Of a stretch of DNA of 64,000 nt, positions 5,819 through 48,215 are shown piece by piece. The notes beneath the pieces were generated by a model. The model saw only the letters and a program-made list of their open reading frames with translations. It was not told the origin of the DNA and did no database searches. Both the position numbers and the translations under genes were made by a program. The stretch is from Alphaproteobacteria bacterium (GTDB lineage: Bacteria; Pseudomonadota; Alphaproteobacteria; CAAHEQ01; UBA3637). The DNA is taken from the NCBI GenBank assembly GCA_017539265.1, contig JAFYHG010000008.1, positions 67,354 to 131,353 of the forward strand. Direction: 5' to 3'. Numbering within the stretch: the first letter of the stretch is position 1; each line of letters starts with the position of its first letter.

Positions 5819-5903
5819 ATACCTACACAATCGCATAATAATATATTAGCGACCTATCCTTGACAAAAAAGTCTTAACATCCTAAAAACATGAATTTTTT
5901 ATG

Positions 5904-5932
5904 TTGACAAAACGGACAAAAGTATGTATAAT
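5904..5932 (+). promoter_or_regulatory. Perfect consensus sigma70 promoter of the giant autotransporter gene
   Basis: TTGACA (5904-5909), exactly 17 nt, TATAAT (5927-5932). AGGAG RBS at 5949-5953 sits 7 nt before the ATG at 5961. Confidence 0.75.
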
Positions 5933-5960
5933 CAAGGAAAATTTTCGTAGGAGTCGCAAT

Positions 5961-8900
5961 ATGAAAAGATTTCTTTGTTTTGCTCTATGTTTAATTTGCA
6001 TCTTATTTGGTATTTCCGCACAGGCGGGAATTAGTTGTGCCAAAGGCTACATTAACTACAATGGCGCCTGTATCAAAAAACTGGATTGTAAAAATGGTGG
6101 CAAACAAGAAGGTTACAGTTGTACTTGCCCTAAGGGATGGACAGGCGAACTGTGCCAAAAAGCGGCGACTTGTCCTTATAAGGATACCAAGTGTTCCACC
6201 GGATATCATGCAACGGGAAAAACGTGTAAGACAGGAAATAAAACCGTTATTCAATGTGCCGTCAATGAATGTAAGGACTATCCCCATATGAAATGTCCGA
6301 CGGGATATACTTCCACGGGAACTTGTCAATCGGGTAAAACAAAGAGATATAAATGTGATGCTTGTGCCAAAGGATATATCCGGTATAACGGTCAATGTAT
6401 CAAGAAGCTGGATTGTAAAAACGGCGGAAAACAAAAAGGGAACAGTTGCACTTGCCCCGAAGGTTGGACGGGATCAAAATGTGATAAAGCGGCCAGTTGC
6501 CCCTATAAAGACACAAAATGTGCCAAAGGATACCACGAAACGGGAAAAACCTGTAAGACTGGAAAGAAAACCGTTAAAGAATGTAAAGCAAATGCTTGCG
6601 AAGGGTACACATATACAAAGTGTCCGACGGGATATGCTTCCACGGGCAGTTGCCAATCGGGCAAAACAACGAAATATAAATGTGATGCTTGTGCCAAAGG
6701 CTATATCCGGTATAACGGTCAATGTATCAAAAAGTTAGATTGTAAAAACGGTGGAAAACAAAAGGGGAATAGCTGTACCTGCCCCGAAGGTTGGACAGGT
6801 AAACAATGCCAAACCGCTGCTTCTTGCTCCTATAAAACAACCTCTTGTTCCAGTAGTCAAGTTGAAACGGGAAACACCTGTAAATCCGGAAATAAGACAT
6901 ATATTCAATGTGCTTCGTCCTGTCCCAAAGGAAAAGTTAAACAAGGGAAAAAGTGTGTGCCGGCCCCGAATTGTCAAAACGGCGGACATGCAAATGGTCT
7001 AAATTGTGTTTGCCCTGACGGTTGGACGGGAACACTTTGTGAAAAGCCAAAAACATGCCCTGCCGATTATACACAAGAATCTTGTGGCGAAGGATATGAA
7101 CAGGTTGGATCATCCTGTAAGTCAGGGGATAAAACATATGTAGCCTGCACGGAAGCGACTTGCCCCTATAATACAACCAGTTGTACAAGGGGCTATGAAG
7201 AAACGGGTGATACCTGTTTATCGGGAACGACCCTTTACAAAAAGTGCCGTGAAAAATCTTGTGCCGGGTATATCATGGGTAGTTGCCCCCAGAATGCTGA
7301 AGGGTGTGAAATTTGTTATCAGGGTGAGATCGAAACTTTCACTTACACCAAATGTAAAGACGGTTGGACGGGGTTAACCTGTAATGTGCCGGCAAATTGT
7401 CCGTATGATACCATCACTTGTCCGGAGGGTTATGAAGAAACAGGGGAAACCTGCCAATCGGGCGATAATACTTATAGGAAATGTAAACCAACCGATTGTA
7501 CCGCGCAAGGATATAAAGCCACTTGTCCGGAGGGTTATAATTCAACACAAGAATGTTTAAGCGGAACAACGCCTTATTATACCTGTACCCCGAAACAAGT
7601 GCCGGCGGGATATCAATCCGAACCTTGCGGTGCGGGTTATAATCAAGTGGATACTTTCTTGTCGGGTGAAACGACTTATTATAAATGCGAGGCCAAACAG
7701 GTACCAAGCGGCTATCAATCTGCCTCTTGCGGTGCCGGTTATGATCAGGTTGATACCTTCCTGTCGGGTAAGACAACCTATTATAAATGTCAGGCCAAAG
7801 ATTGCTCGGCCTATCAAACCGGTTGTTCGGCGGGATATACCGCAGAGCAATCGTGCTTAAGCGGAACAACTCCTTACTATACATGTGTTCCCAAAGTTTG
7901 TCCGGACGGATATAATACAAAGGGGACCTCCTGTTCGCGGGGCTATGTCCAAGCAGGCGATGTCTGCTTATCGGGCGAAGATACCTATGTGAAATGTGTT
8001 CCCAACACGTGTCCTGATACCCATAATGTGCTCGGCAGTTGCGGGGAAGGATATGTGCAAGTTGGGGAAGCCTGTTATTCCGAAGACAGAACATATGTGG
8101 CGTGTACAGAGGCAACCTGCCCCTATGATACAACCAGTTGTACAAGGGGTTATGAAGAAACGGGCGATACGTGTTTATCGGGAACAACCCTTTACAAAAA
8201 ATGCCGTGAAAAATCCTGCGCCGGATATATCATGGGCAGTTGTCCCCAAAATGCGGAAGGGTGCGAAACCTGTTATCAAGGCGAGATTGAAACCTTTACC
8301 TACACCAAATGTAAAGACGGTTGGACAGGATTAACCTGTAATGTGCCGGCAAATTGCCCATTTGATACCCTTACATGCGAGGGTGGCTATGAAGAAACGG
8401 GTGAAACCTGTCAATCGGGTGATAAGACTTATAAAAAATGTCAACCGATTGACTGTAGCGCTCAAGGATATAAAACAAGTTGTACGGAGGGTTACGACGC
8501 CGTTCAAGGATGCCTAAGCGGAACAACTCCTTATTATACCTGTACCCCGAAACAAGTGCCGGCAGAGTATCAGGTCGCCCCTTGTGGTTCGGGATATAAT
8601 CAAATTAATACTTTCTTATCGGGCGAAACAACTTATTATAAATGCGAAGCCATTCAGGTACCGGATGGCTATCAATCTGCCTCTTGCGGTGCCGGTTATG
8701 ATCAGGTTGATACGTTCTTATCAGGTGAAACAACTTATTATAAGTGCCAAGAAACAGATTGTTCCGCATATCAGACCGCTTGCGGTGCCGGATATGATGC
8801 CACAGAAGCTTGTTTAAGCGGTACAACGCCTTATTATACTTGTACGGAAAAAGAAGTGCCAACCGGCTATGGTGCCGAACCATGCGGTACCGGTTATGAT

Positions 8901-11900
8901 TTGGCTGACACCTTCTTATCGGGGGATAAAACCTATTATAAATGTGTTGCCAAAGAAGTTCCCGCCAGATATCAAGCCACTCCCTGCGGTGCGGGATATG
9001 ATGAAATAAGTACGTTCTTATCGGGAACGGCAACGTATTACGAATGTCAAGAAAAAGATTGTTCTCAATATCAGGCCGGCTGTGGAGAAGGCTATGATGC
9101 CGCACAAGCATGCTTAAGCGGCACAACACCCTATTATACATGTACGGAAAAGCAGGTTCCTGATGGATATTCATCCGAATCTTGCGATGACGGATATAAA
9201 CAAACAGGGACGTTCTTATCGGGTACAACAACATATTATCAATGTGCACCCGCCGATGTTCCGAACGGATATGTTGCCACATCTTGTGGTGCCGGTTATG
9301 ATCAGGTTGATACGTTCCTGTCAGGCGAAACAACTTATTATAAGTGCCAAGAAACAGATTGTTCCGCATATCAGACCGCTTGCGGTGCCGGATATGATGC
9401 CACAGAGGCCTGTTTAAGCGGTACGACACCTTATTATACCTGTACGGCAAAACAAGTACCTGCAGAATATCAGGCTGACCCCTGCGGTGCGGGATATAAT
9501 ACGGCTTCCACTTTCTTATCAGGTGAAACAACCTACTATCAATGCGTTGCCAAGCAAGCTCCGGAAGGATATCAAATGCCGGAATGTGCAGCAGGTTATG
9601 ATGAAGTAGCAACATTCTTATCCGGTGATACCGTTTATCATCAATGTGTTGCTAAACAGGTTCCTCCCGAATACAATGCCGAACCGTGCGGCGCGGGGTA
9701 TGATCAGGTTGGTACATTCCTGTCGGGTGAAACAACTTATTATAAGTGCCAGGAAACAGATTGCTCGGCATATCAGACCGCTTGCGGTGACGGATATGAT
9801 GCAACAGAGGCCTGTTTAAGCGGTACAACACATTATTATACCTGTACGGCGAAAGAAGTACCTGCGGGATACGTTGCCGAACCGTGCGGCGCGGGGTACA
9901 ATACTACTTCTACTTTCTTATCAGGTGAAACAACCTACTATAAATGTGTTGCTAACGCTTGTGACGGTTATCCATATGCCAATGCCTGTCCGACAGGATA
10001 TGCGCCGTCATCCAGTTGTCTGTCGGGTGATACAACGATGTATCAATGTAATACTTGCGCGGAAGGGTATATATCAGACGGCAATGGCGGTTGCGTCCTT
10101 AACGTGCCTCAAATCGGGAAAACAGGAGAGACCAACAATGATACCATCGAGGTAGAAAATACGGGTAATGATGATGTATACGGATTGCATTATGATGTTC
10201 CCGATAAACCCCAATATCATGACGTATTAACCGTTGTAAATGCCAGAAACAGTGAAGCGCAAATATCAATCGAAAATGAAGGGGACGGTAATGTTTATGG
10301 TATCCATGCGACGGGATATGCCGATGCGACGAATGCTTTAGGTGAAAACGCAATCGGAACAATTAATATTTCCAATATCGGAGATGGCGCTGTTTACGGT
10401 CTTTACAGTGAACAGAAAAAAGCATTTAATACCGAAGATAACGGTTCGGGCAGTATATCTATCACCAACGAAGGCGATGGTAATATTTACGGCATTTGGG
10501 GAAATGATGAAGCCGTTAACGCCGATGATGAGGGAGAAGGTACCATTGAAATTTCCAATACCGGTGACGGAAATGTATTTGGCGTATATGCGAAGGCCGA
10601 TTACGCCTCTAACAGTGACGGAACAGGTTCAATATCTATCACTAATATTGGTAATGGTTCTGTCTACGGTGTTTGGGGAAAAGCCAATGATCACCCCAAA
10701 GGTCTGATTGACGCCTACAACGCGGATGACATGGGTTCAAATGGTACTATTGAAATTTCTAATACCGGTGACGGCAATGTTTACGGTGTTTGGGGAAATA
10801 ATGGAGCCGCAAATGCCGGTGAAGATGGTACGGATGGAAGCATTGAAATTTCCAATACCGGATCGGGAAATGTCTATGGTGTCTATGCGAATGGTTGGTG
10901 GGCCCTTAATGCTGCCGGTGGTTTAGGGAATATAACCTTGTCAAATACGGGTGATGGTTCAACTTATGGTTTGTATGCAAAAGAATTTGCTCACAACGGT
11001 TGGGATCCCGCTTTTGCCTCAAGATGGCTTACGGAAGATGATGGTGACGGATGGCTATCCGTGGGACATATCAATATCGAGAATAATGGAACCGGAACCG
11101 CCTATGGCGCACATGGGCTTGAGGGCGCCTTTAACTTTGCCAATGAAAAGGGTACTTCTTCAATTGAAATCGCTAATAACGGGAGTGGTTTAGCTGTTGG
11201 TATGTATGCGCCCGAGGTCAACAATATGGGCAATATCCATATTGAAAATTACGGGAATGGAACGGCCATTGGTCTGTATACTACCCAAACGGCAGAAAAT
11301 ACCGGAAATATTTCCATTGATAACTATAAAAACGGAGTTGCCGTCGGTATCATGGCCCAAGGTGAGGGTGATAAAACGGTAACGAACGCCGGAACAATTA
11401 CTATCCGCGGGAAGCAATCTTTGGTGGAAGAGTCTGAATATCTGTCTAGACCGCAGGTGTGGAGTAATGAGGATAAATTTTGGGATGCGCGTGAAACATA
11501 TGAATATTTTCTCGCTAATCTCGTTAATTTTGAACAATCATATGCTGATATAATTGGCAATTCTGTCTGGAGTGAATATTGGAATTCGAGTGGAAATTGG
11601 GTAGTAGATGCTGAAGATATAATTCCGGAAAGGGGAATAGATGAAGATCAAATTTATTTTGAAAAGAATGACCATAGGGTTACAATACGTGATGATGAGC
11701 ATAGACAAAATGAAGTATTCTGGGAACTAGCCAATGATCTTACATTCAATTCACAACAGGAGGGCGATATCCTCGTAAGAGATATCGTTGATTGGGATGA
11801 TGTTCGGTTTGAGGATGGAAAGTTTGCTGAAACTCCCAGATTAAGTGATTCGGTCTATTATTGGACCGATTCAAAGGGACAAAATCATGCCACATCGGCG

Positions 11901-14900
11901 GGTGAACCGAATACGAGTGATTATACCTATGAAGATTCGGAGGGTACTTCACATTATTTAACGATTGATGGAGAGGGTAATTTAATAATTCCGACTAATC
12001 TTCTTAGCGATTCTACTGCGACTACAAATGCATTAAATGTTTTAAATGAATATAATCAGGATAAGGAAAATTACACAGCGGCATTAGGGATTTTAGAAAA
12101 TGACAGGGGAGAACTTGAATACGCGATTTCCGATTTCAATCAATCCATAGATAATTTACGGGAAACACTTAACGCAGTAAAAGAAGCCTACGGGCGATTT
12201 GTGGATAATTATTACGTTGCCTATGATATGGCACATGAGGAATGGGAAAATGATCGGGAAGGTCTTGCCATCGGTATCTATGGGGATAGGAATACCCATA
12301 TCGTGAATACGGGTAAAATTGTTATTGATAACTCGAAATGGACCTTTGGTATCTATACCGAGGGCGGAGATGTCACAAACCGTGGCCAAATCATTATTGA
12401 CGGCGATTATCTTAGTAAAAATGCCATTGTTTTAAATGGTGGAAACCTGTTCCAAAACGGTTTAATTTATACATATTCGGATTGGAATAATATCCAGCAA
12501 AAAGATTCTCTTATTGGTAAAGAAGGTAGCGTTAACAATGATGTCATTACACTGACTAATAATATAGAACGAGATGTCTATGGAATAAAAGGGATTAGTT
12601 ATTCCGTCAAAAATGCATTTCCAATGATAAACGGAGCAGAAGCAACCGGTTATATTAATATATCCAATTATAGTGATGGCAATGTATATGGTGTTAGCGG
12701 AGATAGTCCAAGAAATGCCCATATAGATCAAAATAATACGATTGCTACGGCCCATATACAGCTTGATAATATTGGTAACGGTAATGTCTACGGTTTGTAC
12801 TCAGAAAGTGGATGGGCCGAAAATATACGTGAAGATGGTGTAACCACAAATGTACATAGTGAAATCATCATTAACAATAAAGGCAATGGTGTTGTTTGTG
12901 GTGTAAAAGGTGAGGGAGAAGGACACAACATAAATATTTGGGCTGACTCAATGCTAAATAGTGATGTCAATGCGTTGATTAATATCACAAACCAAGGAAA
13001 TGGTACGGTATATGGGGTGTATAGTTCAAGCAGAGCCTTTAATATCGGTGGGGCACGTGTTCCGATGGAAAATAGTGATATTTCCAGTATTATTCGTATC
13101 CATAATGATGGTGATGCAGATATTTATGGCGTATACGGTCATGAAGTCCATAATAATGAAATATTTACCACTAATCCCAGTCGGACAGGTCTAGCCAAAG
13201 TATCTATATCTAATACCGGTGCCGGAAATGCTTATGGATTGTTTGGATATAATCCGGATAACATGGATCAAGGGAACGCTTTGTCGATTGTTGAAATGGC
13301 TAATATCGGGAATGGCTTAGCCGTCGGTATGTACGCAAAAAGAGAGGCAAAGAATTCCGGTACGATTACCATTCATAACTTGGGTAACGGAACGGCTGTC
13401 GGGATGTTGGTGGATGATAATGGGAAGGGATCAAACTCGGGCACAATTACGATTGATCGAGAAGCCTACACGGATGATATGGGGACACCGGATGACACGT
13501 CGGATGATGTAACATATGAAGCCACTTTAGGTCGTGGTGGGATGGCCATCGGTATCTATGGTGGTGTTGGTAGTACGATCACCAATACAGAAACCGGTAT
13601 TATCAATATCAGTGGCATCAACAAAGCCTATGGTATCTATAGTGAAAGTGGAAATGTCACAAACCTTGGCCAAATCATCATTAACGGCAATTCAAATCAC
13701 GCCAATGCGATTAAGCTGAATAGTGGAAAATTATTCCAAGACGGAAAATTAATTGTTGCAATAAGTTCAGATGATTGTGACGAAGGATATGCCCTTGATG
13801 AAAACGGTAATTGCGTTTTGAAAGATGAAAATGTTTACGGAAAAGTTTCAGAAAGTAATGATTCTACTTTGAATGTGGTTAATTCAAAGTACGCGGATGT
13901 ATACGGCTTATACGGAAACGGGGAAGTCGTCAACGCCAGAGATAATGATGCTTCAATTTCCGTTACGAATACAGGAGATGGTAATGTTTATGGCGTTTAT
14001 TCACCCGATGATAAGGCGAACAATGTAACAAACGACTTAACCGGAACAATCAATATTTCGAATGCCGGTAACGGAAATGTTTATGGTGTGTATTCGGCCG
14101 AAAGCCTTGCGTTCAATGCCGGTTCCGGAGCCGGAAACATCTTTATTTCCAACGTCGGGACCGGCGATGTCTATGGCGTCTACGGAAAAGAAGAAGCCGT
14201 CAATTCGGATGATTTTTATACAACGGGCAATATTCGGATTTCCAATACCGGATCGGGTAATGTATACGGCCTCTTCTCACCGGAAGGATGGAGCGGAAAT
14301 GCTTGGGACGGAACGGGTAATATTTCTCTGTTAAATACGGGGAATGGTACGACCTATGGTATGTATTCCGGCGCATTGGCTCATAACGGTTGGAATTTTG
14401 ATTTCTTATCCCGTTGGGAAAGCGAAATAAATGCCGAAGATGAAGATCAAGACGAAGGCTATGGTCATATCAGCATCGTTAATAACGGTAATGGGAATGC
14501 TTATGGTATGTTTGGTGCCAGGGGTGCCTTTAACCACTATAATGATGAAGATATCTCCACCATTGAAATTGCCAATATTGGAAACGGTTTAGCCGTTGGT
14601 ATGTATTCAAATGAAGTGAATAATTTGGGTGATATCACTATCCATAACCTTGGCAACGGCACCGCCGTCGGTATGATGACGGGTGATTTCGGTATCGCCG
14701 AAAACAGCGGAAGGATTACAATTGATCGTGAAGCCTATACCGATAATAACGGTACGCCCGATGATACATCGGATGATACAACCTATTCGGCAGCTTCTTC
14801 CGGAAGGGGTGGAATGGCCTTTGGTATCTATGGCGGAAAGAACAGTTTAATCTACAATACCGGTACCATTGATATCCGTGATGCCGAAAAAGCCTATGGT

Positions 14901-17900
14901 ATCTACAGTGAAGGCGGACGGGTTATCAATGAAGGTTCCATTATCATTGATGGTGATGAATTTAGCGCCAACGCCATCAAGTTAAATGCCGGTCAATTCT
15001 TCCAAAACGGTATCTTGACGGCAACGACGGATCCGAACACTTGCCCGGTGGGTTATACTCGAGATGAGTTTGGTCGTTGTGCCTATATTATGAAGAATGA
15101 TTTCCTCAATGATGATACATTAAGTGTCGCTAATACAGACGATGTCAATATTTATGGGCTGTATTATACTGTGCCTAATCAACAAAATTCCGATAGCGAT
15201 ACTATGGTTGGTGTTACTAATGCTAAATATAGTGAAGCGGAAATCTCAATCACAAATGAAAGCGAAGGGAATGTTTATGGTGTGTATGCATCCGGTTATA
15301 CGGATACGTCAAACAGTGCCGGTTATCCGGATGGTATCAATGACGGCAAACAAAGATATTTGGGTGTAATTGATATTTCCAACACCGGCAATGGTAATGT
15401 TTATGGTGTTTATAATGCAGAACATAATGCCTTTAACACGGAAAGCGGTTTAGGCAGGATAAATATTACCAACGCAGGCAATGGTGATGTTTACGGTATT
15501 TGGGGCGGTAATGAAGCCGTGAACTCGGACGGTGATGATTCGTTGGCTAACCTTAGGATTTCCAATACCGGAACCGGAAATGTTTATGGCGTGTTTGCTC
15601 AAGAAAGTTGGGCGGGGAATGCTTGGAACGGAATCGGAAACCTCTCTATATCCAATACAGGAAACGGAACAACCTATGGTATCCGTGCGGGTGATGTTGC
15701 TCATAACGGTTGGGATATAGCCTTTGCGTCCAAATGGGTTCCGGAAGAAGAAATTACTGATGATGACTATTGTTTAGGGGTTGGTCATCTCAAAGTCGTG
15801 AACAATGGTAATGGAAATGCTTATGGTGTGTTTGGACCGGAAGGTGCTTTCAACTATACAACCGATGTGGGGACTTCTACCATTGAAATTGCCAATGTCG
15901 GGAGTGGTTTAGCCGTCGGTATGCATTCAAGTGAAGTAAATAATATGGGTGATATCACTATCCATAACCTTGGAAACGGCGTGGCCGTCGGTATGATGAC
16001 GGGTGATTTCGGTATCGTGGAAAACAGCGGTACGATTACGATTGATCGCGTGGCCTATATAGATGATAACGGCACACCCGATAATACGTCGGATGATGTG
16101 AGATATGAAGCCGCTTTAACGCGTGGAGGTACAGCCATCGGTATCTATGGCGGTGCGGGCAGTACGATTACCAATACGTCGACAGGTGTTATTAATATTA
16201 GCGGCGCTGAAAAAGCCTATGGTATCTATAGTGCTGGTGGACAAGTTGTCAACAATGGTCAAATCATTATCGATGGTATCTTAAAAGGTGATGAAGCCAT
16301 CACACTGGCCGGCGGGAAATTATTCCAAAACGGGAAACTGGTTGTTGGCTCTATTCCGGATAATCTCCAATCAAGGGCCCATATCGTCGGCAAGATTGGG
16401 GAAAAGAATAATGCCACCATAACGATAGAAAATTCGGACTATGTTGATGTTTATGGCATTAGTAGTGGTGTGGATGCTGCAAATGCATCGGCGGAAGATG
16501 ATAACGAAAATGTGGCCGGTACAATAAATATTACCAATACAAATAACGGTAATGTTTATGCCGTGTACAGTGACCAAATGGAAGCCTCTAATGCGGAAGA
16601 CGGATTTGGAGAAATATTCGTCAATAACATAGGAAACGGAGATGTCTATGGCGTCTATGGTAATACCGAGGCCGCCAATGCCGATGAATTTGAAACCGTC
16701 GGTAATATCCGAATTTCCAATGCCGGAAGCGGTAATGTCTATGGCGTATTCGCAAAAGGCGGATGGGCCGGTAATGCCTGGGCAGGTGCAGGAAACCTGA
16801 GCATTTCGAACACGGGTGACGGCACAACCTATGGTCTTTATGCCAGCCAATATGCCCATAACGGTTGGAATTACACCTTCGGTCAAAAATGGTCTATATT
16901 TGACCCGGATGATATCGGTAGTTTAGGCGTTGGCCATATCCGTATCGTTAATAATGGTAACGGAAATGCCTATGGTATGCAGGGTGTAGAAGGTGCCTTT
17001 AACTTTGCCCATGAAAAAGGCGCTTCTTCGATTGAAATTGCCAATGTCGGGAGTGGTTTAGCCGTTGGTATGCATTCAAGTGAAGTAAATAACATGGGTG
17101 ATATCACTATCCATAACCTTGGAAATGGTACAGCCGTCGGTATGTTGGTCAATGATAACGGTGTTGCAGAAAACAGCGGCACGATTACGATTGATCGCGT
17201 GGCCTATACCGATGATAACGGTACACCCGATGACACGTCGGATGATACAACCTATGAAGCTGCCTCAGAACATGGTGGTAGGGCAATCGGTATCTATGGT
17301 GGCAAAAACAGCACGATTACCAATACCGGAATCATCAGCATCACCGGTGCAGATGATGCCTATGGTATCTATGCTGAGGAAGGCTCAACCTTCACAAACA
17401 GCGGTCAAATTATTATTGACGGTGATTCCAATCATGCCAATGCAATTAAATTAAACGGCGGAAAGCTCTTCCAAAACGGTAAATTGATTGCTAATGCCGA
17501 TGTTGAAGATATTACTCATCCGGACACAGGTTCAGAAATTATTTTAAAAACACTGACAGAAGAAGATGATGGAAATAATGAGACAATTAAAGCAGTTGTC
17601 AATTCGACAAGTTCAATTATTGGGATAGAGGCTCAAAATTCTGTCAGTAATATAATACTTGACTCCGGTAGTATGACAGCAACTGTCGATATTACACAAA
17701 GAGGCGTTGGCGATGTTTACGGAATGCGTGGCAATGTCAGTTCTTCTCAAGATATAAAAAATGTCGATTTGGCAGGTGATTCTGCAATGGGGGCTATCAA
17801 AATAACGGATACAAGTGCAGGAACCGGTAATATCTATGGAATGTATTCCAATTCCAATAAACAGGTTGAGAATGCACATGTAGATGGTGAAAATGATTCA

Positions 17901-20447
17901 ATGGCTATGGGAATAATTGACATTACCAATACAAGCGATAAAGATATTTATGGTATTTTAAATTTAGCAGATAATGAATATGATGACGGAGAAAACGGAA
18001 CAATCAATTCGGAAGGTGATGAAGGAACATCCATTGGTTACATTATCATTGATAATTCAGGTAATGGAGATGTTTATGGAATTAAAGCCATAAATCCGCA
18101 ATTTAATTCTGAATCCACAAAGCATGCCGAAAGCAAAGCATACATTAATATTAAAAATTCAGGATTGGGATCTGTTTATGGTATGTATGGCGAAGAAGAA
18201 GTATATAATGCGCGGGCAGGACATGACAGAGAGTATGGAGAGCTTAAAGATTATTCTTCTTCTACCGGTGTCATAAGTATAGATAGTTTTGATTCCAGCG
18301 ATGTTTATGGAATAAAGTCGACATCAGAAACAGCTTCCATATATAATGCAATGGCTTGGGATGCTGCAATGGCAAAAGGAACTATTCGTATTCATAATGT
18401 ACTTGATGGCGATGTCTATGGTATGAGTGGTAAATATATTCAATCTGCAGGAACAGCCACTAATAATGGAATCGCATTACCCAAAGCACCAAATGCCGAA
18501 AGTGTTATTAATATTATAAATCATTCATTGGGCGATAGTTATGGATTATATTCAGATATACAAGACAATATAATCAATCATAGTTCTTATACTAGAGATG
18601 ATGGAATAGCTAAATCTACCCTTGAAATGGCAAATATTGATAATGGTTTTGTTGTCGGTATTTACAGCAAGAACGGAACTGTAAATAACTCAGGGGATAT
18701 TAAAATTCATAACCTCTATAACGGAACTGCGGTTGGTATTTACGCTGATGGAACAACAAATGTTACAAACAGTGGAACCATCACAATCGATCGTGGAAAC
18801 TTTACAGATGATATGGGAACGGAAGATACATCAGACGATGTCACTTACACTTCTCGATCCACAACGGGCGGATTGGCAATCGGTATCTATGGCGGTGCGG
18901 GTAGCACGATTACCAATACCGGAACCATCAGCATCACCGGTGCAGATGATGCTTATGGTATTTACAGCGAAGGTGAAAGTGTTGTCAATAACGGACAAAT
19001 CATGATTGACGGCGTTTTGAAAAATGGGAATGAGGCAGTTGTGCTAAACGGCGGCCGGTTATTCCAAAATGGTAAACTTGTGGCCGCGGGCGGTGCTTCA
19101 TCGATAGAGTTAGGATTAGGAGGATCCACGACATCGGTATCCGAAACAGGTACCTCCACCGAAACACCTAAGGCTTCGTTGAACTTGAACGATTTCGGGG
19201 GTAGCGTTATTGCCTCCGAAACATCTGAATTCATTGTTGAAGGGGCTTTGTCCGGTGATTTAACCATGAACAACAGCGTGATTTCAAACGGTTTCCGGAC
19301 GGTTTATACGGTTCCTGATATGATATTGGCCGGCGATACCAGCGGATTGAACCTGATATCCGAATCGGCTTTGTTTGACGTTTCGTTGGCGGATAACGGA
19401 CACGATGTCGTGATGACAATGCGCGGCTTTGATGCGGCAACGGATAATCGCAGTTTTGCGAATTTCTTGGCCCGTAACTATGCCCTTAAAAACAATGAAG
19501 CGTTCTTTAATACCCTTAAAGAAATCGGGAATATGGCCACTCTGACGGATGGTTTGGATAAGATGATGGGTAAAGAGATGCTGAGTCGCTTTAACTTTGA
19601 AGACATGACGATGATGCGTGAACTCAATTTTGATATGAATAATCACTTATTCAACAATAAGGATTATTACTTCAGCATGGGCGGTTCAGTATCTTCACCG
19701 ATGGCCTTCCGCGGTGATAACGGATCCAACAGTCGGTATAGTCTGGCCAGTAAGAAGAAGGACTCTTGGTCACTGGGCCTTGGAATTGCCTTCACCGATA
19801 TTCGTAGCGATGATGACCATGACAATAACTCGCGTTCGGATACGATGTATCAGATGATTGTGCCTGTTGGGTATCAGGCAAATGGGTTCAAGTTTGTTAT
19901 GTCGCCTCGTATCGGATATGCACGCGGTCATTATGATCGGACCGGGTTCGATAATAAAAACTATGACGGAACGATTGAAAAGAGAATCTTTGGCTTAATG
20001 AACGAAGTCAGATACCCGATTGCTTTGGATAGTTGGCGGTTTGAACCGGCAATGGAATTCAATGCTTTAGGCTATGAACAAAAAGGTTGGGAAGACAAAA
20101 AAGAGTTCAGTTTGAATATCCCGCGGCAGAGAACATACTCTATTGAAAGCGGTATCGGTCTATATGCAACCCATGAAACCAAATGGGGTAAAGATACGCA
20201 ATTCAAATTTACAGCAGGTGTGGCAGCTTACCATGAATTTGCGGATCCTTACCGGATTGATGTGGGTATGGACGGCATGAACGGACGCTTTACTTTACGG
20301 GATGAAAAACGGTCGGATAACCGCGGTGTCGTTCGGGCCGGATTTGAAATCGAAAAGAAAGATTATTCTGTGTATGGCTCCTTTATCTCTTATGTGGATA
20401 AAGAAGTCCGCAGTAAGGCAAAGCTTGGATTTAAGTGGAAGTTCTAA
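5961..20447 (+). CDS. Giant (~4,828 aa) type Va autotransporter / surface adhesin-like protein with EGF-like modules, Cys-rich repeats and a beta-solenoid repeat passenger
   Basis: Uninterrupted ORF. Start placed at MKRFLCFALCLICILFGISAQA (signal peptide, good RBS) because the ORF-track ATG at 5901 overlaps the -35 box. The C-terminal ~260 aa show alternating hydrophobic strands and end in GFKWKF, with the terminal aromatic typical of OMP barrels. Upstream lies a helical linker region (NRSFANFLARNYALKNNEAFFNTLKE...), as in autotransporter domains. Confidence 0.85.
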   Translation: MKRFLCFALCLICILFGISAQAGISCAKGYINYNGACIKKLDCKNGGKQEGYSCTCPKGWTGELCQKAATCPYKDTKCSTGYHATGKTCKTGNKTVIQCAVNECKDYPHMKCPTGYTSTGTCQSGKTKRYKCDACAKGYIRYNGQCIKKLDCKNGGKQKGNSCTCPEGWTGSKCDKAASCPYKDTKCAKGYHETGKTCKTGKKTVKECKANACEGYTYTKCPTGYASTGSCQSGKTTKYKCDACAKGYIRYNGQCIKKLDCKNGGKQKGNSCTCPEGWTGKQCQTAASCSYKTTSCSSSQVETGNTCKSGNKTYIQCASSCPKGKVKQGKKCVPAPNCQNGGHANGLNCVCPDGWTGTLCEKPKTCPADYTQESCGEGYEQVGSSCKSGDKTYVACTEATCPYNTTSCTRGYEETGDTCLSGTTLYKKCREKSCAGYIMGSCPQNAEGCEICYQGEIETFTYTKCKDGWTGLTCNVPANCPYDTITCPEGYEETGETCQSGDNTYRKCKPTDCTAQGYKATCPEGYNSTQECLSGTTPYYTCTPKQVPAGYQSEPCGAGYNQVDTFLSGETTYYKCEAKQVPSGYQSASCGAGYDQVDTFLSGKTTYYKCQAKDCSAYQTGCSAGYTAEQSCLSGTTPYYTCVPKVCPDGYNTKGTSCSRGYVQAGDVCLSGEDTYVKCVPNTCPDTHNVLGSCGEGYVQVGEACYSEDRTYVACTEATCPYDTTSCTRGYEETGDTCLSGTTLYKKCREKSCAGYIMGSCPQNAEGCETCYQGEIETFTYTKCKDGWTGLTCNVPANCPFDTLTCEGGYEETGETCQSGDKTYKKCQPIDCSAQGYKTSCTEGYDAVQGCLSGTTPYYTCTPKQVPAEYQVAPCGSGYNQINTFLSGETTYYKCEAIQVPDGYQSASCGAGYDQVDTFLSGETTYYKCQETDCSAYQTACGAGYDATEACLSGTTPYYTCTEKEVPTGYGAEPCGTGYDLADTFLSGDKTYYKCVAKEVPARYQATPCGAGYDEISTFLSGTATYYECQEKDCSQYQAGCGEGYDAAQACLSGTTPYYTCTEKQVPDGYSSESCDDGYKQTGTFLSGTTTYYQCAPADVPNGYVATSCGAGYDQVDTFLSGETTYYKCQETDCSAYQTACGAGYDATEACLSGTTPYYTCTAKQVPAEYQADPCGAGYNTASTFLSGETTYYQCVAKQAPEGYQMPECAAGYDEVATFLSGDTVYHQCVAKQVPPEYNAEPCGAGYDQVGTFLSGETTYYKCQETDCSAYQTACGDGYDATEACLSGTTHYYTCTAKEVPAGYVAEPCGAGYNTTSTFLSGETTYYKCVANACDGYPYANACPTGYAPSSSCLSGDTTMYQCNTCAEGYISDGNGGCVLNVPQIGKTGETNNDTIEVENTGNDDVYGLHYDVPDKPQYHDVLTVVNARNSEAQISIENEGDGNVYGIHATGYADATNALGENAIGTINISNIGDGAVYGLYSEQKKAFNTEDNGSGSISITNEGDGNIYGIWGNDEAVNADDEGEGTIEISNTGDGNVFGVYAKADYASNSDGTGSISITNIGNGSVYGVWGKANDHPKGLIDAYNADDMGSNGTIEISNTGDGNVYGVWGNNGAANAGEDGTDGSIEISNTGSGNVYGVYANGWWALNAAGGLGNITLSNTGDGSTYGLYAKEFAHNGWDPAFASRWLTEDDGDGWLSVGHINIENNGTGTAYGAHGLEGAFNFANEKGTSSIEIANNGSGLAVGMYAPEVNNMGNIHIENYGNGTAIGLYTTQTAENTGNISIDNYKNGVAVGIMAQGEGDKTVTNAGTITIRGKQSLVEESEYLSRPQVWSNEDKFWDARETYEYFLANLVNFEQSYADIIGNSVWSEYWNSSGNWVVDAEDIIPERGIDEDQIYFEKNDHRVTIRDDEHRQNEVFWELANDLTFNSQQEGDILVRDIVDWDDVRFEDGKFAETPRLSDSVYYWTDSKGQNHATSAGEPNTSDYTYEDSEGTSHYLTIDGEGNLIIPTNLLSDSTATTNALNVLNEYNQDKENYTAALGILENDRGELEYAISDFNQSIDNLRETLNAVKEAYGRFVDNYYVAYDMAHEEWENDREGLAIGIYGDRNTHIVNTGKIVIDNSKWTFGIYTEGGDVTNRGQIIIDGDYLSKNAIVLNGGNLFQNGLIYTYSDWNNIQQKDSLIGKEGSVNNDVITLTNNIERDVYGIKGISYSVKNAFPMINGAEATGYINISNYSDGNVYGVSGDSPRNAHIDQNNTIATAHIQLDNIGNGNVYGLYSESGWAENIREDGVTTNVHSEIIINNKGNGVVCGVKGEGEGHNINIWADSMLNSDVNALINITNQGNGTVYGVYSSSRAFNIGGARVPMENSDISSIIRIHNDGDADIYGVYGHEVHNNEIFTTNPSRTGLAKVSISNTGAGNAYGLFGYNPDNMDQGNALSIVEMANIGNGLAVGMYAKREAKNSGTITIHNLGNGTAVGMLVDDNGKGSNSGTITIDREAYTDDMGTPDDTSDDVTYEATLGRGGMAIGIYGGVGSTITNTETGIINISGINKAYGIYSESGNVTNLGQIIINGNSNHANAIKLNSGKLFQDGKLIVAISSDDCDEGYALDENGNCVLKDENVYGKVSESNDSTLNVVNSKYADVYGLYGNGEVVNARDNDASISVTNTGDGNVYGVYSPDDKANNVTNDLTGTINISNAGNGNVYGVYSAESLAFNAGSGAGNIFISNVGTGDVYGVYGKEEAVNSDDFYTTGNIRISNTGSGNVYGLFSPEGWSGNAWDGTGNISLLNTGNGTTYGMYSGALAHNGWNFDFLSRWESEINAEDEDQDEGYGHISIVNNGNGNAYGMFGARGAFNHYNDEDISTIEIANIGNGLAVGMYSNEVNNLGDITIHNLGNGTAVGMMTGDFGIAENSGRITIDREAYTDNNGTPDDTSDDTTYSAASSGRGGMAFGIYGGKNSLIYNTGTIDIRDAEKAYGIYSEGGRVINEGSIIIDGDEFSANAIKLNAGQFFQNGILTATTDPNTCPVGYTRDEFGRCAYIMKNDFLNDDTLSVANTDDVNIYGLYYTVPNQQNSDSDTMVGVTNAKYSEAEISITNESEGNVYGVYASGYTDTSNSAGYPDGINDGKQRYLGVIDISNTGNGNVYGVYNAEHNAFNTESGLGRINITNAGNGDVYGIWGGNEAVNSDGDDSLANLRISNTGTGNVYGVFAQESWAGNAWNGIGNLSISNTGNGTTYGIRAGDVAHNGWDIAFASKWVPEEEITDDDYCLGVGHLKVVNNGNGNAYGVFGPEGAFNYTTDVGTSTIEIANVGSGLAVGMHSSEVNNMGDITIHNLGNGVAVGMMTGDFGIVENSGTITIDRVAYIDDNGTPDNTSDDVRYEAALTRGGTAIGIYGGAGSTITNTSTGVINISGAEKAYGIYSAGGQVVNNGQIIIDGILKGDEAITLAGGKLFQNGKLVVGSIPDNLQSRAHIVGKIGEKNNATITIENSDYVDVYGISSGVDAANASAEDDNENVAGTINITNTNNGNVYAVYSDQMEASNAEDGFGEIFVNNIGNGDVYGVYGNTEAANADEFETVGNIRISNAGSGNVYGVFAKGGWAGNAWAGAGNLSISNTGDGTTYGLYASQYAHNGWNYTFGQKWSIFDPDDIGSLGVGHIRIVNNGNGNAYGMQGVEGAFNFAHEKGASSIEIANVGSGLAVGMHSSEVNNMGDITIHNLGNGTAVGMLVNDNGVAENSGTITIDRVAYTDDNGTPDDTSDDTTYEAASEHGGRAIGIYGGKNSTITNTGIISITGADDAYGIYAEEGSTFTNSGQIIIDGDSNHANAIKLNGGKLFQNGKLIANADVEDITHPDTGSEIILKTLTEEDDGNNETIKAVVNSTSSIIGIEAQNSVSNIILDSGSMTATVDITQRGVGDVYGMRGNVSSSQDIKNVDLAGDSAMGAIKITDTSAGTGNIYGMYSNSNKQVENAHVDGENDSMAMGIIDITNTSDKDIYGILNLADNEYDDGENGTINSEGDEGTSIGYIIIDNSGNGDVYGIKAINPQFNSESTKHAESKAYINIKNSGLGSVYGMYGEEEVYNARAGHDREYGELKDYSSSTGVISIDSFDSSDVYGIKSTSETASIYNAMAWDAAMAKGTIRIHNVLDGDVYGMSGKYIQSAGTATNNGIALPKAPNAESVINIINHSLGDSYGLYSDIQDNIINHSSYTRDDGIAKSTLEMANIDNGFVVGIYSKNGTVNNSGDIKIHNLYNGTAVGIYADGTTNVTNSGTITIDRGNFTDDMGTEDTSDDVTYTSRSTTGGLAIGIYGGAGSTITNTGTISITGADDAYGIYSEGESVVNNGQIMIDGVLKNGNEAVVLNGGRLFQNGKLVAAGGASSIELGLGGSTTSVSETGTSTETPKASLNLNDFGGSVIASETSEFIVEGALSGDLTMNNSVISNGFRTVYTVPDMILAGDTSGLNLISESALFDVSLADNGHDVVMTMRGFDAATDNRSFANFLARNYALKNNEAFFNTLKEIGNMATLTDGLDKMMGKEMLSRFNFEDMTMMRELNFDMNNHLFNNKDYYFSMGGSVSSPMAFRGDNGSNSRYSLASKKKDSWSLGLGIAFTDIRSDDDHDNNSRSDTMYQMIVPVGYQANGFKFVMSPRIGYARGHYDRTGFDNKNYDGTIEKRIFGLMNEVRYPIALDSWRFEPAMEFNALGYEQKGWEDKKEFSLNIPRQRTYSIESGIGLYATHETKWGKDTQFKFTAGVAAYHEFADPYRIDVGMDGMNGRFTLRDEKRSDNRGVVRAGFEIEKKDYSVYGSFISYVDKEVRSKAKLGFKWKF
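6036..7040 (+). repeat. Four EGF-like six-cysteine modules; the first three lie in a 327-nt (109-aa) tandem triplication
   Basis: Modules at 6036-6155, 6363-6482, 6690-6809 and 6921-7040 share the spacing C-x10-C-x5-C-x10-C-x-C-x8-C, with CKNGGKQxGxSCTCPxGWTGxxC. Copies 1-3 start exactly 327 nt apart. Confidence 0.8.
7041..10094 (+). repeat. Array of ~36-aa Cys-rich repeats (C-G-x-G-Y ... L-S-G-x-T-x-Y-Y-x-C) with nested large duplications
   Basis: The units PCGAGYDQVDTFLSGETTYYKC and DCSAYQTACGAGYDATEACLSGTTPYYTC recur dozens of times. The block at 7138 repeats at 8095 (offset 957 nt). Segments 8688-8845 and 9288-9445 are near-identical at an offset of exactly 600 nt. A third copy lies near 9700-9840. 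Confidence 0.85.
10095..19085 (+). repeat. Six super-repeats (about 1.15-2.4 kb each) made of ~28-32-aa units with the core I-x-I-S-N-x-G-x-G-N-V-Y-G-[VIL]; predicted beta-solenoid passenger
   Basis: Each super-repeat ends with ...TITIDR-AYTDD-GTPDDTSDD-TYEA...GG-AIGIYGG...AYGIYSEGG-V-N-GQIIIDG...ANAIKLNGGKLFQNGKL. The end motifs lie near 12480, 13770, 15033, 16352, 17500 and 19085. Confidence 0.8.
19664..20444 (+). other. Predicted autotransporter beta-barrel translocator domain
   Basis: Amphipathic strand pattern (WSLGLGIAFTDI, YQMIVPVGYQ, FKFVMSPRIGYA, FGLMNEVRYPI, FEPAMEFNALGY, IESGIGLYAT, FKFTAGVAAYHEF, VRAGFEIEK, VYGSFISYV) and the terminal KLGFKWKF. Confidence 0.75.
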
Positions 20448-20465
20448 CCAACTTTTCCAAACAAA

Positions 20466-20485
20466 CCTCCCCCAAACGGGGGAGG
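20466..20485. terminator. Shared hairpin between convergent genes
   Basis: cctccccc-aaac-gggggagg 8-bp GC-rich stem. A T-rich tract follows on the minus strand (tttgtttgg), so it reads as a terminator at least for the minus-strand gene. Confidence 0.6.
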
Positions 20486-20521
20486 TAATAATTGTTGCTT
20501 TGATTACCTATCGCTATTTTC

Positions 20522-22411
20522 TTACTTTTTTGCACGATGAAATGCCAACACCATCATTGTGATATCATCGGATTGCGCGGCCCCTTTTACAAAGCGTTGG
20601 ATGGCCTTGCGCACCACTGCAATCGTCCCTTCAGGCGAAACTATCTTCTGGTTCAGTGCTTTTTGAAGTCTCTCCGGTCCAAATAATTTTTCTTTATCCG
20701 TTTGCGCTTCGGTTACCCCATCCGTATAGAGGAACAACCGCTCCCCGTTTTTCAATTTAAACTTTCCGCTTTCGTATTGATAGTTCGGTGTAATCCCCAA
20801 GACCAAATTCCGCACCACCGTCACATAGTCATATCCTTTTTTTGTCAACTGCAAAGGCGGACAGTGCCCCGCATTCACGTATTGTATTTCTCCCGTTTTA
20901 ACATCCAAAATACCGATAAAGGCCGTTACAAACATCCCTCGAACGTGGTTATCGCATAAACCTTTATTTGCCTTGTTTATAGCCTCTGCAATAGGATACC
21001 CCGCCTGTAACATATTCTTAATCATTGCCTTAGCCGACATCATATATAAGGCCGCCGTAATTCCTTTACCGGATACATCTGCCATAACAAAAGCATAGTA
21101 CCCTTCACCAACAGGAAAAAAGTCATAAAAATCCCCACCGACTTCCCGCGCCGGTGTCATTGAAGCCACCAACTCAAATCGTTCATTTTTAGGAAAGTCT
21201 GTCGGTAGAGCCGATGTTTGGATGGTATGAGCAATCGCCAATTCCGATTCTATTTTTTCTTTTTCGCCGGAAACTCGCGCCAATTCCAACAGATGCGTTT
21301 TGATATCCGTTTTCATCTTATTGAAGGCACCTGCCAATTGCGCCAACTCCGATGGCTCTGCCAGATGAATAGTTCTGTCTAAGTCCCCGCCACTAATTTT
21401 TTTGGCAATATCCGTCAATTCCGCAATCGGCTGATTGATATTGCGCCGTAAAACGCGATATAAAATCCCTACAATCACAAGTGCACTTATCAATAAAACA
21501 GTCAACAAGTTTCGTAAATGTTTCACAGCTTTTTGAAATAATTCCCACTGTGGCACATTTACAATCAAAAAGAATCCGTTATTCAACCGTTTTATATAAG
21601 GAATATATTTCTTTCCTTTATAGTCAAATGCCTCACCCTCTTTCAATTTATCGGAATACCATTTTGTTTCTTTTAATGATTTTCCCATAATGGTATTGTT
21701 ATCTACCCCGGGTTCGGTCGTTGCGATAATGCAATCATTTGTTTTATCAGCAAACAGAACAAAACTACCTTTTGTCGGTTTTATCTTTAAAATGGATTTT
21801 AAAATCGTATCCATTTCCCAATCCACCGTTGCCATACCGACTAAATTGCCTTGATTATAAATGCCGGCCCCAACCGTCGTCATCAAATTCCCCAATTGTG
21901 TGCTTCTATAGGGTCTTACCCAGGACACCCTCTTCTTGCGGTCGATGTTTTTCAAAATCTCACTATACCAATTCTGACCAAAGTAATCAAAAATCGCCTT
22001 AACGCAAGACGGCAATAATTCTATTTTTCCGTTGTCCCCCCAAACGGCATGTATGCAAAAAATCTTTTGGTCGTTGCTTATCTGGTACGGCAAAAAATAA
22101 ATACCGTTTCCCATGGAATTTGGGTAATTATGCAAAATTCCCTTAGCAAAAAATTCCCCAACATCCTGCTGTTTTCCCTTTTGATAATATATCTCCCCCA
22201 TTAAGGCCAAGTCCAAAGCATTCTTTTCCAGTTCAGCAATTTCGGCATTCATCTGCCCTTCAAAAGAGGTAATAGACACATTATTTGCCGCAATAATTTG
22301 CTCTTTATCCCGATAAAAGGCAATAACGGCAGAACTTATCACGACAAGTGCCAATACAAACAACAACGATATCGACACACCAACAATTTTAGATTTAATG
22401 CTTTTAAACAT
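20522..22411 (-). CDS. Membrane sensor: periplasmic Cache-like domain, HAMP, and PP2C/SpoIIE serine phosphatase (RsbU-like)
   Basis: N-terminal TM (IVGVSISLLFVLALVVISSAVIAF). About 270 aa of extracytoplasmic region. Second TM (LLTVLLISALVIVGILY). HAMP-like INQPIAELTDIAKKISGGDLD. PP2C motifs GGDFYDFF, ADVSGKGITAAL, LYTDGVTEA and SDDITMMVLAF. Confidence 0.8.
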   Translation of the reverse strand: MFKSIKSKIVGVSISLLFVLALVVISSAVIAFYRDKEQIIAANNVSITSFEGQMNAEIAELEKNALDLALMGEIYYQKGKQQDVGEFFAKGILHNYPNSMGNGIYFLPYQISNDQKIFCIHAVWGDNGKIELLPSCVKAIFDYFGQNWYSEILKNIDRKKRVSWVRPYRSTQLGNLMTTVGAGIYNQGNLVGMATVDWEMDTILKSILKIKPTKGSFVLFADKTNDCIIATTEPGVDNNTIMGKSLKETKWYSDKLKEGEAFDYKGKKYIPYIKRLNNGFFLIVNVPQWELFQKAVKHLRNLLTVLLISALVIVGILYRVLRRNINQPIAELTDIAKKISGGDLDRTIHLAEPSELAQLAGAFNKMKTDIKTHLLELARVSGEKEKIESELAIAHTIQTSALPTDFPKNERFELVASMTPAREVGGDFYDFFPVGEGYYAFVMADVSGKGITAALYMMSAKAMIKNMLQAGYPIAEAINKANKGLCDNHVRGMFVTAFIGILDVKTGEIQYVNAGHCPPLQLTKKGYDYVTVVRNLVLGITPNYQYESGKFKLKNGERLFLYTDGVTEAQTDKEKLFGPERLQKALNQKIVSPEGTIAVVRKAIQRFVKGAAQSDDITMMVLAFHRAKK

Positions 22412-23573: not shown

Positions 23574-23617
23574 CAATCGGGGTGGCTAGCCCACCCCACA
23601 ACAAAAGGAGGAAAAAA

Positions 23618-24508: not shown

Positions 24509-24518
24509 GGAGGAAAAA

Positions 24519-25634: not shown

Positions 25635-25673
25635 CAATCGCGGTGTCTGACCACCACCCAAAAGGAGAAAAAA

Positions 25674-26333: not shown

Positions 26334-26362
26334 AAGTTTATAGCAACAGAAGGGAGAATAAA

Positions 26363-48066: not shown

Positions 48067-48215
48067 TTTTTCTCCTTCATATTTAATTATAGCATTTTTT
48101 TGCCTTCTGTCCAGAAAAAACACCATTTAAAAAAATGTAATTACTTTGTGATTATTTTTGTTGCTTTTTTATTTTTTATCCGATATAGTGGATTTGTAGT
48201 TGTCAGGAGGTCCTT

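Follow-up and report, generated by a model that had tools for sequence, protein, structure and literature searches.

The window analysed here, a 64-kb stretch of a contig from an uncultured alphaproteobacterium of gut or rumen (GenBank assembly GCA_017539265.1, contig JAFYHG010000008.1, positions 67,354 to 131,353), carries a giant gene whose product we consider, with fair confidence, to be a type Va autotransporter with a long fibrillar passenger and a cysteine (Cys)-rich head of locally bonded, epidermal growth factor (EGF)-like modules, acting as an adhesin. A single open frame extends from 5901 to 20447 (+) and gives 4,848 amino acids (aa) when translated mechanically, with no internal stop. 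Taken from ATG 5961, the coding sequence (5961–20447, +) comprises 4,828 codons plus stop, that is 14,487 nucleotides (nt) or 22.6% of the window. This ATG is favoured as the true start since a sigma-70-type promoter (TTGACA-17 nt-TATAAT, 5904–5932, +), matching the consensus at 12 of 12 positions, is located inside the longer extension that begins at 5901. A putative ribosome-binding site GGAG (5950–5953, +) was read from the sequence with a spacer of 7 nt to the ATG. Downstream, a G+C-rich 9-bp hairpin (20465–20486, strand-neutral) lies between the autotransporter gene and a convergent gene for a SpoIIE-type phosphatase, and is likely a bidirectional terminator. With its own promoter, coding sequence and terminator-like hairpin, the gene appears to be a monocistronic chromosomal unit.

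The protein starts with a Sec signal peptide (aa 1–22, 5961–6026, +; MKRFLCFALCLICILFGISAQA, followed by G), recognized by inspection from its n-region KR, a hydrophobic core and an AQA cleavage motif. A lipoprotein signal was judged unlikely, again by inspection: the GIS-C that follows AQA makes a poor lipobox and a type I signal peptidase site fits better. The sequence-only reading of this DNA had described an uninterrupted 14.5-kb frame over about 23% of the window, a Sec signal peptide, a Cys-packed distal passenger with Cys-rich modules over ~1,350 aa (14 Cys in the first 109-aa unit), ~3,000 aa of GNVYG-type repeats and a C-terminal barrel-like domain ending in KWKF. This layout was recovered in all its parts.

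In a comparison with the PF03797 (Autotransporter) profile, the last 325 aa gave an E-value of 1.8e-19 and 70.9 bits, well above the cut-off of 26, with aa 4600–4807 aligned. Pfam and NCBIfam searches were blank with segments of 748–1,400 aa and with the 452-aa C-terminus, but an absence of any barrel profile match is ruled out by the result obtained with the 325-aa query. HMMER filters caused these false negatives with long queries (18201–20444, 748 aa; 19089–20444, 452 aa), and Pfam negatives on long, compositionally biased repeat proteins are thus not trustworthy. The AlphaFold2 (AF2) model of the C-terminal region, built from 31 sequences, has a mean predicted local distance difference test score (pLDDT) of 87.4 and consists of a barrel preceded by ~70 helical residues and, before these, by a small beta-domain. 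The beta-domain (aa 4406–4487, 19176–19421, +; strands at model residues 40–111, pLDDT about 90) is placed beside the barrel, in autochaperone position. It is followed by an alpha-helical linker (aa 4497–4565, 19449–19655, +; helices at model residues 121–189) and by the translocator beta-barrel itself (aa 4570–4828, 19668–20444, +), which is free of Cys. Behind the helix at model residues 168–189, DSSP assigned 12–13 strand segments, consistent with a 12-stranded barrel, and this last long helix of the linker probably spans the pore. Foldseek searches of the PDB with the barrel model returned AaaA, EstA, EspP, AIDA-I, NalP, Hbp and BrkA at the top (E 7e-12 to 2e-6). The protein ends in LGFKWKF, with the terminal F kept in at least 90% of the 31 aligned relatives. 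No Pfam match was obtained for the junction domain and helical linker, and a PDB sequence search with the barrel returned nothing useful. Profile match and predicted fold together identify the C-terminus as a genuine translocator of type Va, and we regard the identity of the whole protein as a type Va autotransporter as highly probable. As in the classical members of this group (AIDA-I, Ag43, pertactin, BrkA; BigE), a Sec signal peptide, a passenger and a helix-preceded PF03797 barrel are found on one polypeptide, and the passenger is repetitive and rich in Gly and Asn. Unlike them, the window protein has an unusually long multi-helix linker before the barrel (~70 aa), and its distal 28% is an EGF-like array with 142 Cys.

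With the C-terminal 452 aa as query, 45 homologous proteins were retrieved, all from uncultured Alphaproteobacteria, the best of which was 62% identical. Many of them carry PF03797, and some are named ‘autotransporter outer membrane beta-barrel domain-containing protein’ by NCBI. When one genome per GTDB species was scanned, 100 loci with a related barrel were found, often several per genome and all in uncultured gut, rumen or faecal Alphaproteobacteria (UBA, RUG and RGIG series; Hadza and Nepali human gut metagenome-assembled genomes; Ca. Enterousia). The window barrel is 60–67% identical to copies from UBA3637 and UBA3650 and ~40% identical to Enterousia copies. The same architecture as in the window occurs in the independently assembled P0059 (5,209 aa), P0066 (3,079 aa), P0077 (2,752 aa), P0058 (2,324 aa), P0048 (1,051 aa) and L011 (>3,766 aa), and in P0077 the Cys-rich modules extend over ~1,900 aa. 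P0058 and P0059 have additional Cys-rich blocks amid their solenoid blocks.

Between head and barrel, aa 1366–4376 are made of six super-repeats of 380–810 aa, each closing with the motif NAIKLN.GKLFQ[ND]G. Over ~3,000 aa of this region (aa 1379–4376), G-x-G-N-V-Y-G coils recur 47 times or more at intervals of 24–31 aa, with the consensus G-x-I-x-I-x-N-x-G-x-G-x-V-Y-G-x-Y...N. A 13-residue Cys hairpin (C-x2-GY-x2-D-x2-G-x-C) opens three of the six. Super-repeat 1 (aa 1366–2172, 10056–12476, +) begins with such a hairpin (Cys 1366 and 1378) before its coils, as do super-repeat 3 (aa 2601–3022, 13761–15026, +; Cys 2606 and 2618) and super-repeat 4 (aa 3023–3463, 15027–16349, +; Cys 3028 and 3040). 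Super-repeats 2 (aa 2173–2600, 12477–13760, +) and 5 (aa 3464–3845, 16350–17495, +) were delimited by the recurring end motif, and super-repeat 6 (aa 3846–4376, 17496–19088, +) is the most divergent of the six. Searches of the PDB with one super-repeat or with a 13-sequence super-repeat profile gave no match, nor did Pfam with the super-repeats, including the sixth (in a library copy without PF27417). In this, too, the protein differs from classical type Va autotransporters, its super-repeats having no sequence relative detectable in the PDB or in that Pfam copy. Judged by the coil period, they most likely fold as a beta-solenoid.

Comparison of the loops showed that super-repeat 1 contains a unique acidic insert of ~324 aa (aa 1790–2113, 11328–12299, +), standing in place of a short ‘REAYTDD..TSDD’ loop in the other super-repeats. 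It is the sole non-repetitive segment of the passenger, has an isoelectric point (pI) of 4.2 and shows a partly predicted-helical character with heptad-like NxLxxL stretches. No Pfam match and no homologue among the family members fetched were found for it. Such a segment could be a functional or ligand-binding domain.

The protein owes its gigantism to a passenger unit duplicated in tandem; relatives of 1,000–1,600 aa, such as P0048, have one copy of it. A precedent exists in BigE, which reaches 10,429 aa by eight-fold replication of a passenger unit (PMC3419190), and the window protein resembles it in this mode of enlargement. Size alone, which the sequence-only reading had counted as exceptional together with the architecture, is therefore not without parallel; for the architecture, we found no characterised homologue. 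Likeness to the Salmonella BigA type is limited to precomputed PF27417 ‘BigA_3rd’ matches, marked weak, on relatives of the super-repeats, including super-repeat 3. Two distant barrel relatives gave weak BigA_beta (PF25783) matches under the gathering cut-off, and this domain was not found in the window protein by Pfam search. BigA has been described with an AIDA-I-like passenger, an EGF-like head being unmentioned there (PMC3419190). The window protein is not demonstrably of BigA type.

A gene of this length in a short-read metagenome assembly raises the question of whether it is a chimera of paralogous autotransporter genes or carries an inflated repeat array. The gene is highly repetitive, and its relatives occur as several paralogues per genome, prone to mis-joins. 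In addition, the exact protein has no record in the public gene index with either start codon, and comparison of the window flanks with 80 related loci revealed no syntenic orthologue, only a tRNA and a distant acyltransferase/AMP-ligase being matched. However, internal repeat copies are 60–84% identical in DNA (at most 84% over 300 nt) and thus resolvable by assemblers, which makes it unlikely that the length results from repeat collapse or mis-joining. The frame is open over 14.5 kb, the domains follow one another coherently (signal peptide, head, the six super-repeats closed by one motif, junction, barrel), and G+C content and the positive GC skew run through the gene with no abrupt break. 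Independently assembled proteins of 2,300–5,209 aa share the plan. We therefore consider an assembly artefact very improbable and treat the giant autotransporter as genuine.

The head covers ~1,350 aa (aa 23–1378) and includes four canonical and two variant EGF-like domains together with ~32 truncated-EGF modules of ~33 aa. Its distal tip (aa 23–360, 6027–7040, +) is basic and consists of three 109-aa units, each with one 6-Cys EGF and two 4-Cys modules, then the fourth canonical EGF; the first unit (aa 26–134) has exactly 14 Cys. The remainder is an acidic Cys-rich stalk (aa 361–1365, 7041–10055, +) of ~28 truncated modules (32–34 aa) and the two variant EGF-like domains. From aa 841 onwards this stalk follows a 100-aa, three-module period (300-nt period in the DNA, 60–84% identity). 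The canonical spacing C-x10-C-x5-C-x10-C-x-C-x8-C is exact at aa 26, 135, 244 and 321, and the EGF signature C-x-C-x5-G-aromatic-x-G-x2-C is present in the 6-Cys units. PF21700 (EGF_DL_JAG) matched the head in three stretches (E 6.7e-12, 45.7 bits, cut-off 27); PF00008 (EGF) reached 16.1, under its cut-off of 21.5. The AF2 model of aa 23–243 (pLDDT 90.2) contains beta-hairpins only, and its predicted template-modelling score of 0.51 is low, as expected of a rod. Foldseek aligned it with NELL2 EGF1-6 (1.9e-4) and Notch1 EGF20-24 (3.4e-4), both at moderate E-values, then with Jagged, Del-1 and Pvs25, and a weak sequence match was seen with the Spitz/LIN-3 EGF. Profile, spacing and predicted fold thus place the head in the EGF-like superfamily, and the 33-aa module behaves as an EGF lacking the C5–C6 sub-domain. 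The calcium-binding EGF consensus D-x-[DN]-E-C before C1 was not found by regular expression in the window protein, and the NCBI label ‘calcium-binding protein’ of the relative P0046 is consequently unsupported for it. With eukaryotic EGF arrays (Notch, Jagged/Delta, NELL2, Del-1; Plasmodium Pvs25/Pfs28) the head shares the 6-Cys spacing, with C-x-C-x5-G-W-x-G-x2-C, and a predicted rod of beta-hairpin beads. In contrast to them, it is bacterial and fused to an autotransporter, identity is 15–27%, and most of its units are reduced to ~33 aa with four or two Cys.

Classical autotransporter passengers are typically Cys-poor (PMC9769942), and the sequence-only reading had seen in the head a conflict with type Va secretion. 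Of the 151 Cys of the protein, 142 lie in aa 23–1378 and 6 beyond, and the signal peptide has 3, leaving an even number of 148 in the mature form; the number is also even in 41 of 56 relatives. Neighbouring Cys of the head are never more than 20 residues apart. In the truncated modules they follow the pattern C1-x6-7-C2-xx-GY-x5-6-C3-x-[ST]G-x5-6-C4, or a 2-Cys form without C1 and C3, in which Pro replaces C1 and Phe replaces C3. By regular expression, with two edge cases assigned by eye, C1 and C3 are both present in 19 modules of the window protein, both missing in 13 and never found singly. The same was observed in the relatives (102 modules with both, 22 with neither, none with only one; Fisher p = 7e-25). 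Since C1 and C3 are always lost together, C1 would pair with C3 and hence C2 with C4. We infer from this that the disulfides are strictly local, each spanning about 17–21 residues, and that the head is a string of tiny independently folding units instead of a globally cross-linked domain.

Strictly local bonds would remove most of the apparent conflict. According to summaries of Leyton 2011 and Jong 2007 in PMC9769942 and PMC3546941, closely spaced Cys pairs are tolerated by autotransporters and large loops block export. A many-Cys type V passenger is also known from Chlamydia, where all 18 Cys of the N-terminal fragment of PmpD are disulfide-bonded (PMC6005502). PmpD is the nearest precedent for the window protein, and the chlamydial Pmps (PmpD, Pmp21) are likewise paralogues of an expanded family, in a bacterium that has a small genome and depends on its host. 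Unlike in the Pmps, where Cys are dispersed through the beta-helix, those of the window protein are about eight-fold more numerous and sit in discrete EGF-type modules. No sequence similarity to Pmps was detected, GGA[ILV] was absent and FxxN occurred 12 times against about 9.5 expected by composition; on these negative motif searches, the Pmp-family identity was rejected, as was that of a calcium-binding EGF. The passenger is thus indeed far from Cys-poor, but with gaps of at most 20 residues, local bonds, tolerated small loops and the PmpD precedent, the proposed conflict was overstated. By analogy with the tolerated loops, passage of the head through the pore in the oxidised state is plausible. 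A dedicated export factor, suggested as another way out, was not seen: neither the window gene nor the loci of its relatives have a consistently adjacent accessory gene, and a search around ~75 family loci for a conserved chaperone or oxidoreductase neighbour found none, the largest cluster being serine recombinases at 5 loci. These recombinase/invertase-type genes adjoin some members (L018 15036–16727, L039 12622–13254 and others; 4–5 of ~75 loci) and may reflect phase variation or association with mobile elements.

Richness in Cys is not peculiar to the window protein. Ten or more Cys are present in 49 of 56 complete open reading frames with a related barrel; 30 or more occur in 29 of them, 50 or more in 20 and 100 or more in 6, the maximum being 180 Cys in a protein of 2,510 aa. 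The Cys always lie in the N-terminal 50–70%, the last 300 aa having nearly none (0–3). Cys-rich passengers are therefore the rule within this lineage-specific autotransporter family. Searches with the head module gave 4 matches in 5.8 billion proteins (word-indexed) and 41 in 1.84 billion representatives (full HMMER), among the latter the giants P0059, P0066, P0077 and P0058. No description of the family was found in the literature on EGF-like or Cys-rich alphaproteobacterial autotransporters and on Enterousia adhesins. An undescribed class, as the sequence-only reading had it, is in keeping with this lack of a characterised homologue among proteins and in the literature, with the correction that the window protein is not singular and belongs to an expanded family. 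What is new, relative to the literature searched, is that type Va passengers throughout a lineage bear tandem EGF-type modules, with at least 100 Cys.

Other combinations of these modules were observed in the same lineage. In P0061 (1,802 aa), 4-Cys modules are joined to an S8 subtilase (PF00082, E 8.6e-40) and not to solenoid repeats; this protein has, by look only, an apparent C-terminal outer-membrane domain. The 4-Cys modules thus seem to be a portable stalk for different cargoes. The N-termini of P0047, P0048, P0058, P0060, P0066 and P0077 are composed of a signal peptide, an ankyrin-like segment (weak Ank_2 matches) and a Gly/Ala-rich hydrophobic stretch (FLGMG..GW...GAVVAGG..AAAGGGGGG), followed by the Cys-rich modules. 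This arrangement is absent from the window protein, and a transmembrane-like segment within an autotransporter passenger is odd. In P0049, L014 (7643–9025, +) and L036 (6884–7906, −), a prepilin-type N-terminus (GRSxxEMLGVLAIxG...) is fused to Cys-rich/EGF-like domains, and from these sequences the lineage appears to place EGF-type modules on pilin-like proteins too.

Alternatively, disulfides may play no part during export. In a lineage without a periplasmic thiol oxidase (DsbA/DsbB) or without quinones, which DsbB needs, the passenger would cross reduced and unfolded, and its EGF-like modules would be oxidised and folded only extracellularly or close to a micro-oxic host surface; the close Cys spacing would then mirror the EGF fold and not a constraint of secretion. 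No Dsb-like gene is present within the 64-kb window. The family is represented in Ca. Enterousia (order Rs-D84) and in small-genome rumen Proteobacteria, reported to have genomes of about 1 Mb and, for Rs-D84, no respiratory chain and probably a partner-dependent lifestyle (PMC12306168, PMC6785717). In addition, E. coli without DsbA exports Cys-containing passengers better (Jose 1996, as cited in PMC9769942). However, the barrel identities given above do not place the window organism in Rs-D84, and an oxidant outside the cell is hard to see in an anoxic lumen. The globular domain of a pilin normally folds in the periplasm, so that the prepilin-type fusions of this lineage are a weak hint of periplasmic oxidation capacity. 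We regard this reading as possible, short of probable, and as the leading alternative for how the head is exported; between oxidised and reduced transit we favour neither.

Concerning function, a marked contrast of charge was observed along the passenger. The distal aa 23–352 (6027–7016) have a net charge of +38 and a pI of 9.2, whereas all other passenger segments (7017–19088) have pI values of 4.0–4.8 and a summed net charge of about −330. This layout, in which a long acidic shaft carries a basic tip, supports the adhesin reading, and large repetitive autotransporter passengers (AIDA-I, Ag43, Pmp) are typically adhesins. The passenger might instead be a surface coat or spacer fibre, or it might imitate eukaryotic ligands of the EGF family (Notch/Delta/EGFR-type) and so target the host epithelium or rumen protists. 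The Delta-like/Jagged profile is its best Pfam match, the fold matches (Notch, Jagged, NELL2, Del-1) and the weak Spitz/LIN-3 match point the same way, and the modules coupled to a subtilase in P0061 would suit a general stalk or targeting device. Yet these matches are generic to the EGF fold (15–27% identity, best E 1.9e-4), the calcium-binding consensus is missing, most modules, being truncated to four or two Cys, differ from signalling EGFs, and no receptor-binding residues were identified. A role other than adhesion is thus unlikely. From its architecture, an adhesin function is somewhat favoured for the window protein, and a role in host interaction is plausible.

Following the known workings of type Va systems, Sec would export the protein by means of its signal peptide (aa 1–22), and the β-barrel assembly machinery (BAM) would insert the Cys-free barrel (aa ~4570–4828). 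The passenger would be threaded out from C to N, the junction beta-domain first, the six super-repeats next and the ~1,350-aa head last. This order need not hold throughout the family, since the Cys-rich blocks amid solenoid blocks in P0058 and P0059 show that such modules are not always the last to be exported. Local disulfide loops would either pass the barrel/BAM pore as small loops or form only after export. Once outside, the acidic shaft (about −330) may hold the basic EGF tip (+38) off the cell, where it could bind anionic surfaces of host or partner cells; a rough estimate from module counts puts the reach of the fibre at tens of nanometres or more.

Several points weigh against this picture. 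The disulfide connectivity is deduced from covariation. Interleaved 1–3/2–4 bonds would tie ~30 residues into a compact knot, which is bulkier than the simple loops used in experiments, and passage in the oxidised state is for that reason not assured. The rumen or gut habitat is anoxic and reducing, which puts disulfide formation itself in doubt. Two lone Cys at aa 2313 (nt ~12897) and aa 3271 (nt ~15771) have no obvious partner: both belong to the solenoid region, 958 residues apart, and one stands where a VYG coil has its Tyr. These two residues could be free thiols or could form intermolecular bonds. The beta-solenoid is drawn from periodicity, the super-repeats having no PDB or Pfam match, and the adhesin role from architecture. 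A wider proposal, in which the family routinely exports tens to ~90 disulfide-bonded EGF modules per molecule and the EGF-tipped fibres serve small-genome, possibly partner-dependent Alphaproteobacteria as docking organelles on a eukaryotic host or protist, is held only tentatively and is rather doubtful as a whole.

The surroundings of the autotransporter gene are an ordinary chromosomal context. Genes for tRNA-Leu and tRNA-Arg are found immediately upstream, and an Elm1-like gene and a DNA methylase gene are also on the upstream side; further along the window are a complete dcw cell-division cluster, FtsY, GreA and TrxB. Within the dcw cluster, a 937-aa frame (40536–43349, −) has two full sets of Mur ligase domains, an apparent MurE-MurF type fusion. 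The convergent neighbour (20522–22411, −) encodes a SpoIIE-type PP2C phosphatase with Cache and HAMP sensor domains, and a second SpoIIE-type PP2C phosphatase (52485–54485, −) is fused to receiver and HATPase-like domains. As far as can be seen, the two represent partner-switching-type signalling with no visible relation to the autotransporter. A PPIC-type peptidyl-prolyl isomerase of 325 aa (54897–55874, −), SurA/PpiD-like, is a candidate periplasmic chaperone for biogenesis of outer-membrane proteins and autotransporters, 34 kb distant and with no specific link to the gene. Several open reading frames of 220–544 aa have no Pfam match (23582–27187, +; 46492–49742; 51059–51721), and none of them is Cys-rich.

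Studies of type V secretion treat Cys-poor passengers, with a closely spaced pair at most, as a signature of the mechanism, a rule that was derived from loops engineered into a small number of enterobacterial models. The family described here is a natural experiment at the opposite extreme, with passengers of 100–180 Cys arranged in EGF-like beads distal to, and sometimes between, solenoid blocks. It makes testable both the limit of size and cross-linking of the barrel/BAM pore and whether oxidation occurs before or after export. If the modules oxidise in the periplasm, the type Va/BAM route would pass doubly cross-linked mini-domains, beyond the small-loop tolerance reported. If they do not, non-respiring small-genome gut symbionts would fold disulfide-rich proteins after export, in an anoxic habitat and by an unknown way. 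Should the only cause be an anaerobe without Dsb, the mechanistic interest would drop, and a new adhesin architecture would remain. In this family, an animal-type extracellular module, the tandem EGF, has become the stalk of bacterial surface fibres and, it appears, part of pilin-like proteins too. The family thereby points to molecules that probably mediate attachment of small-genome gut and rumen Alphaproteobacteria, whose lifestyle may be partner-dependent.

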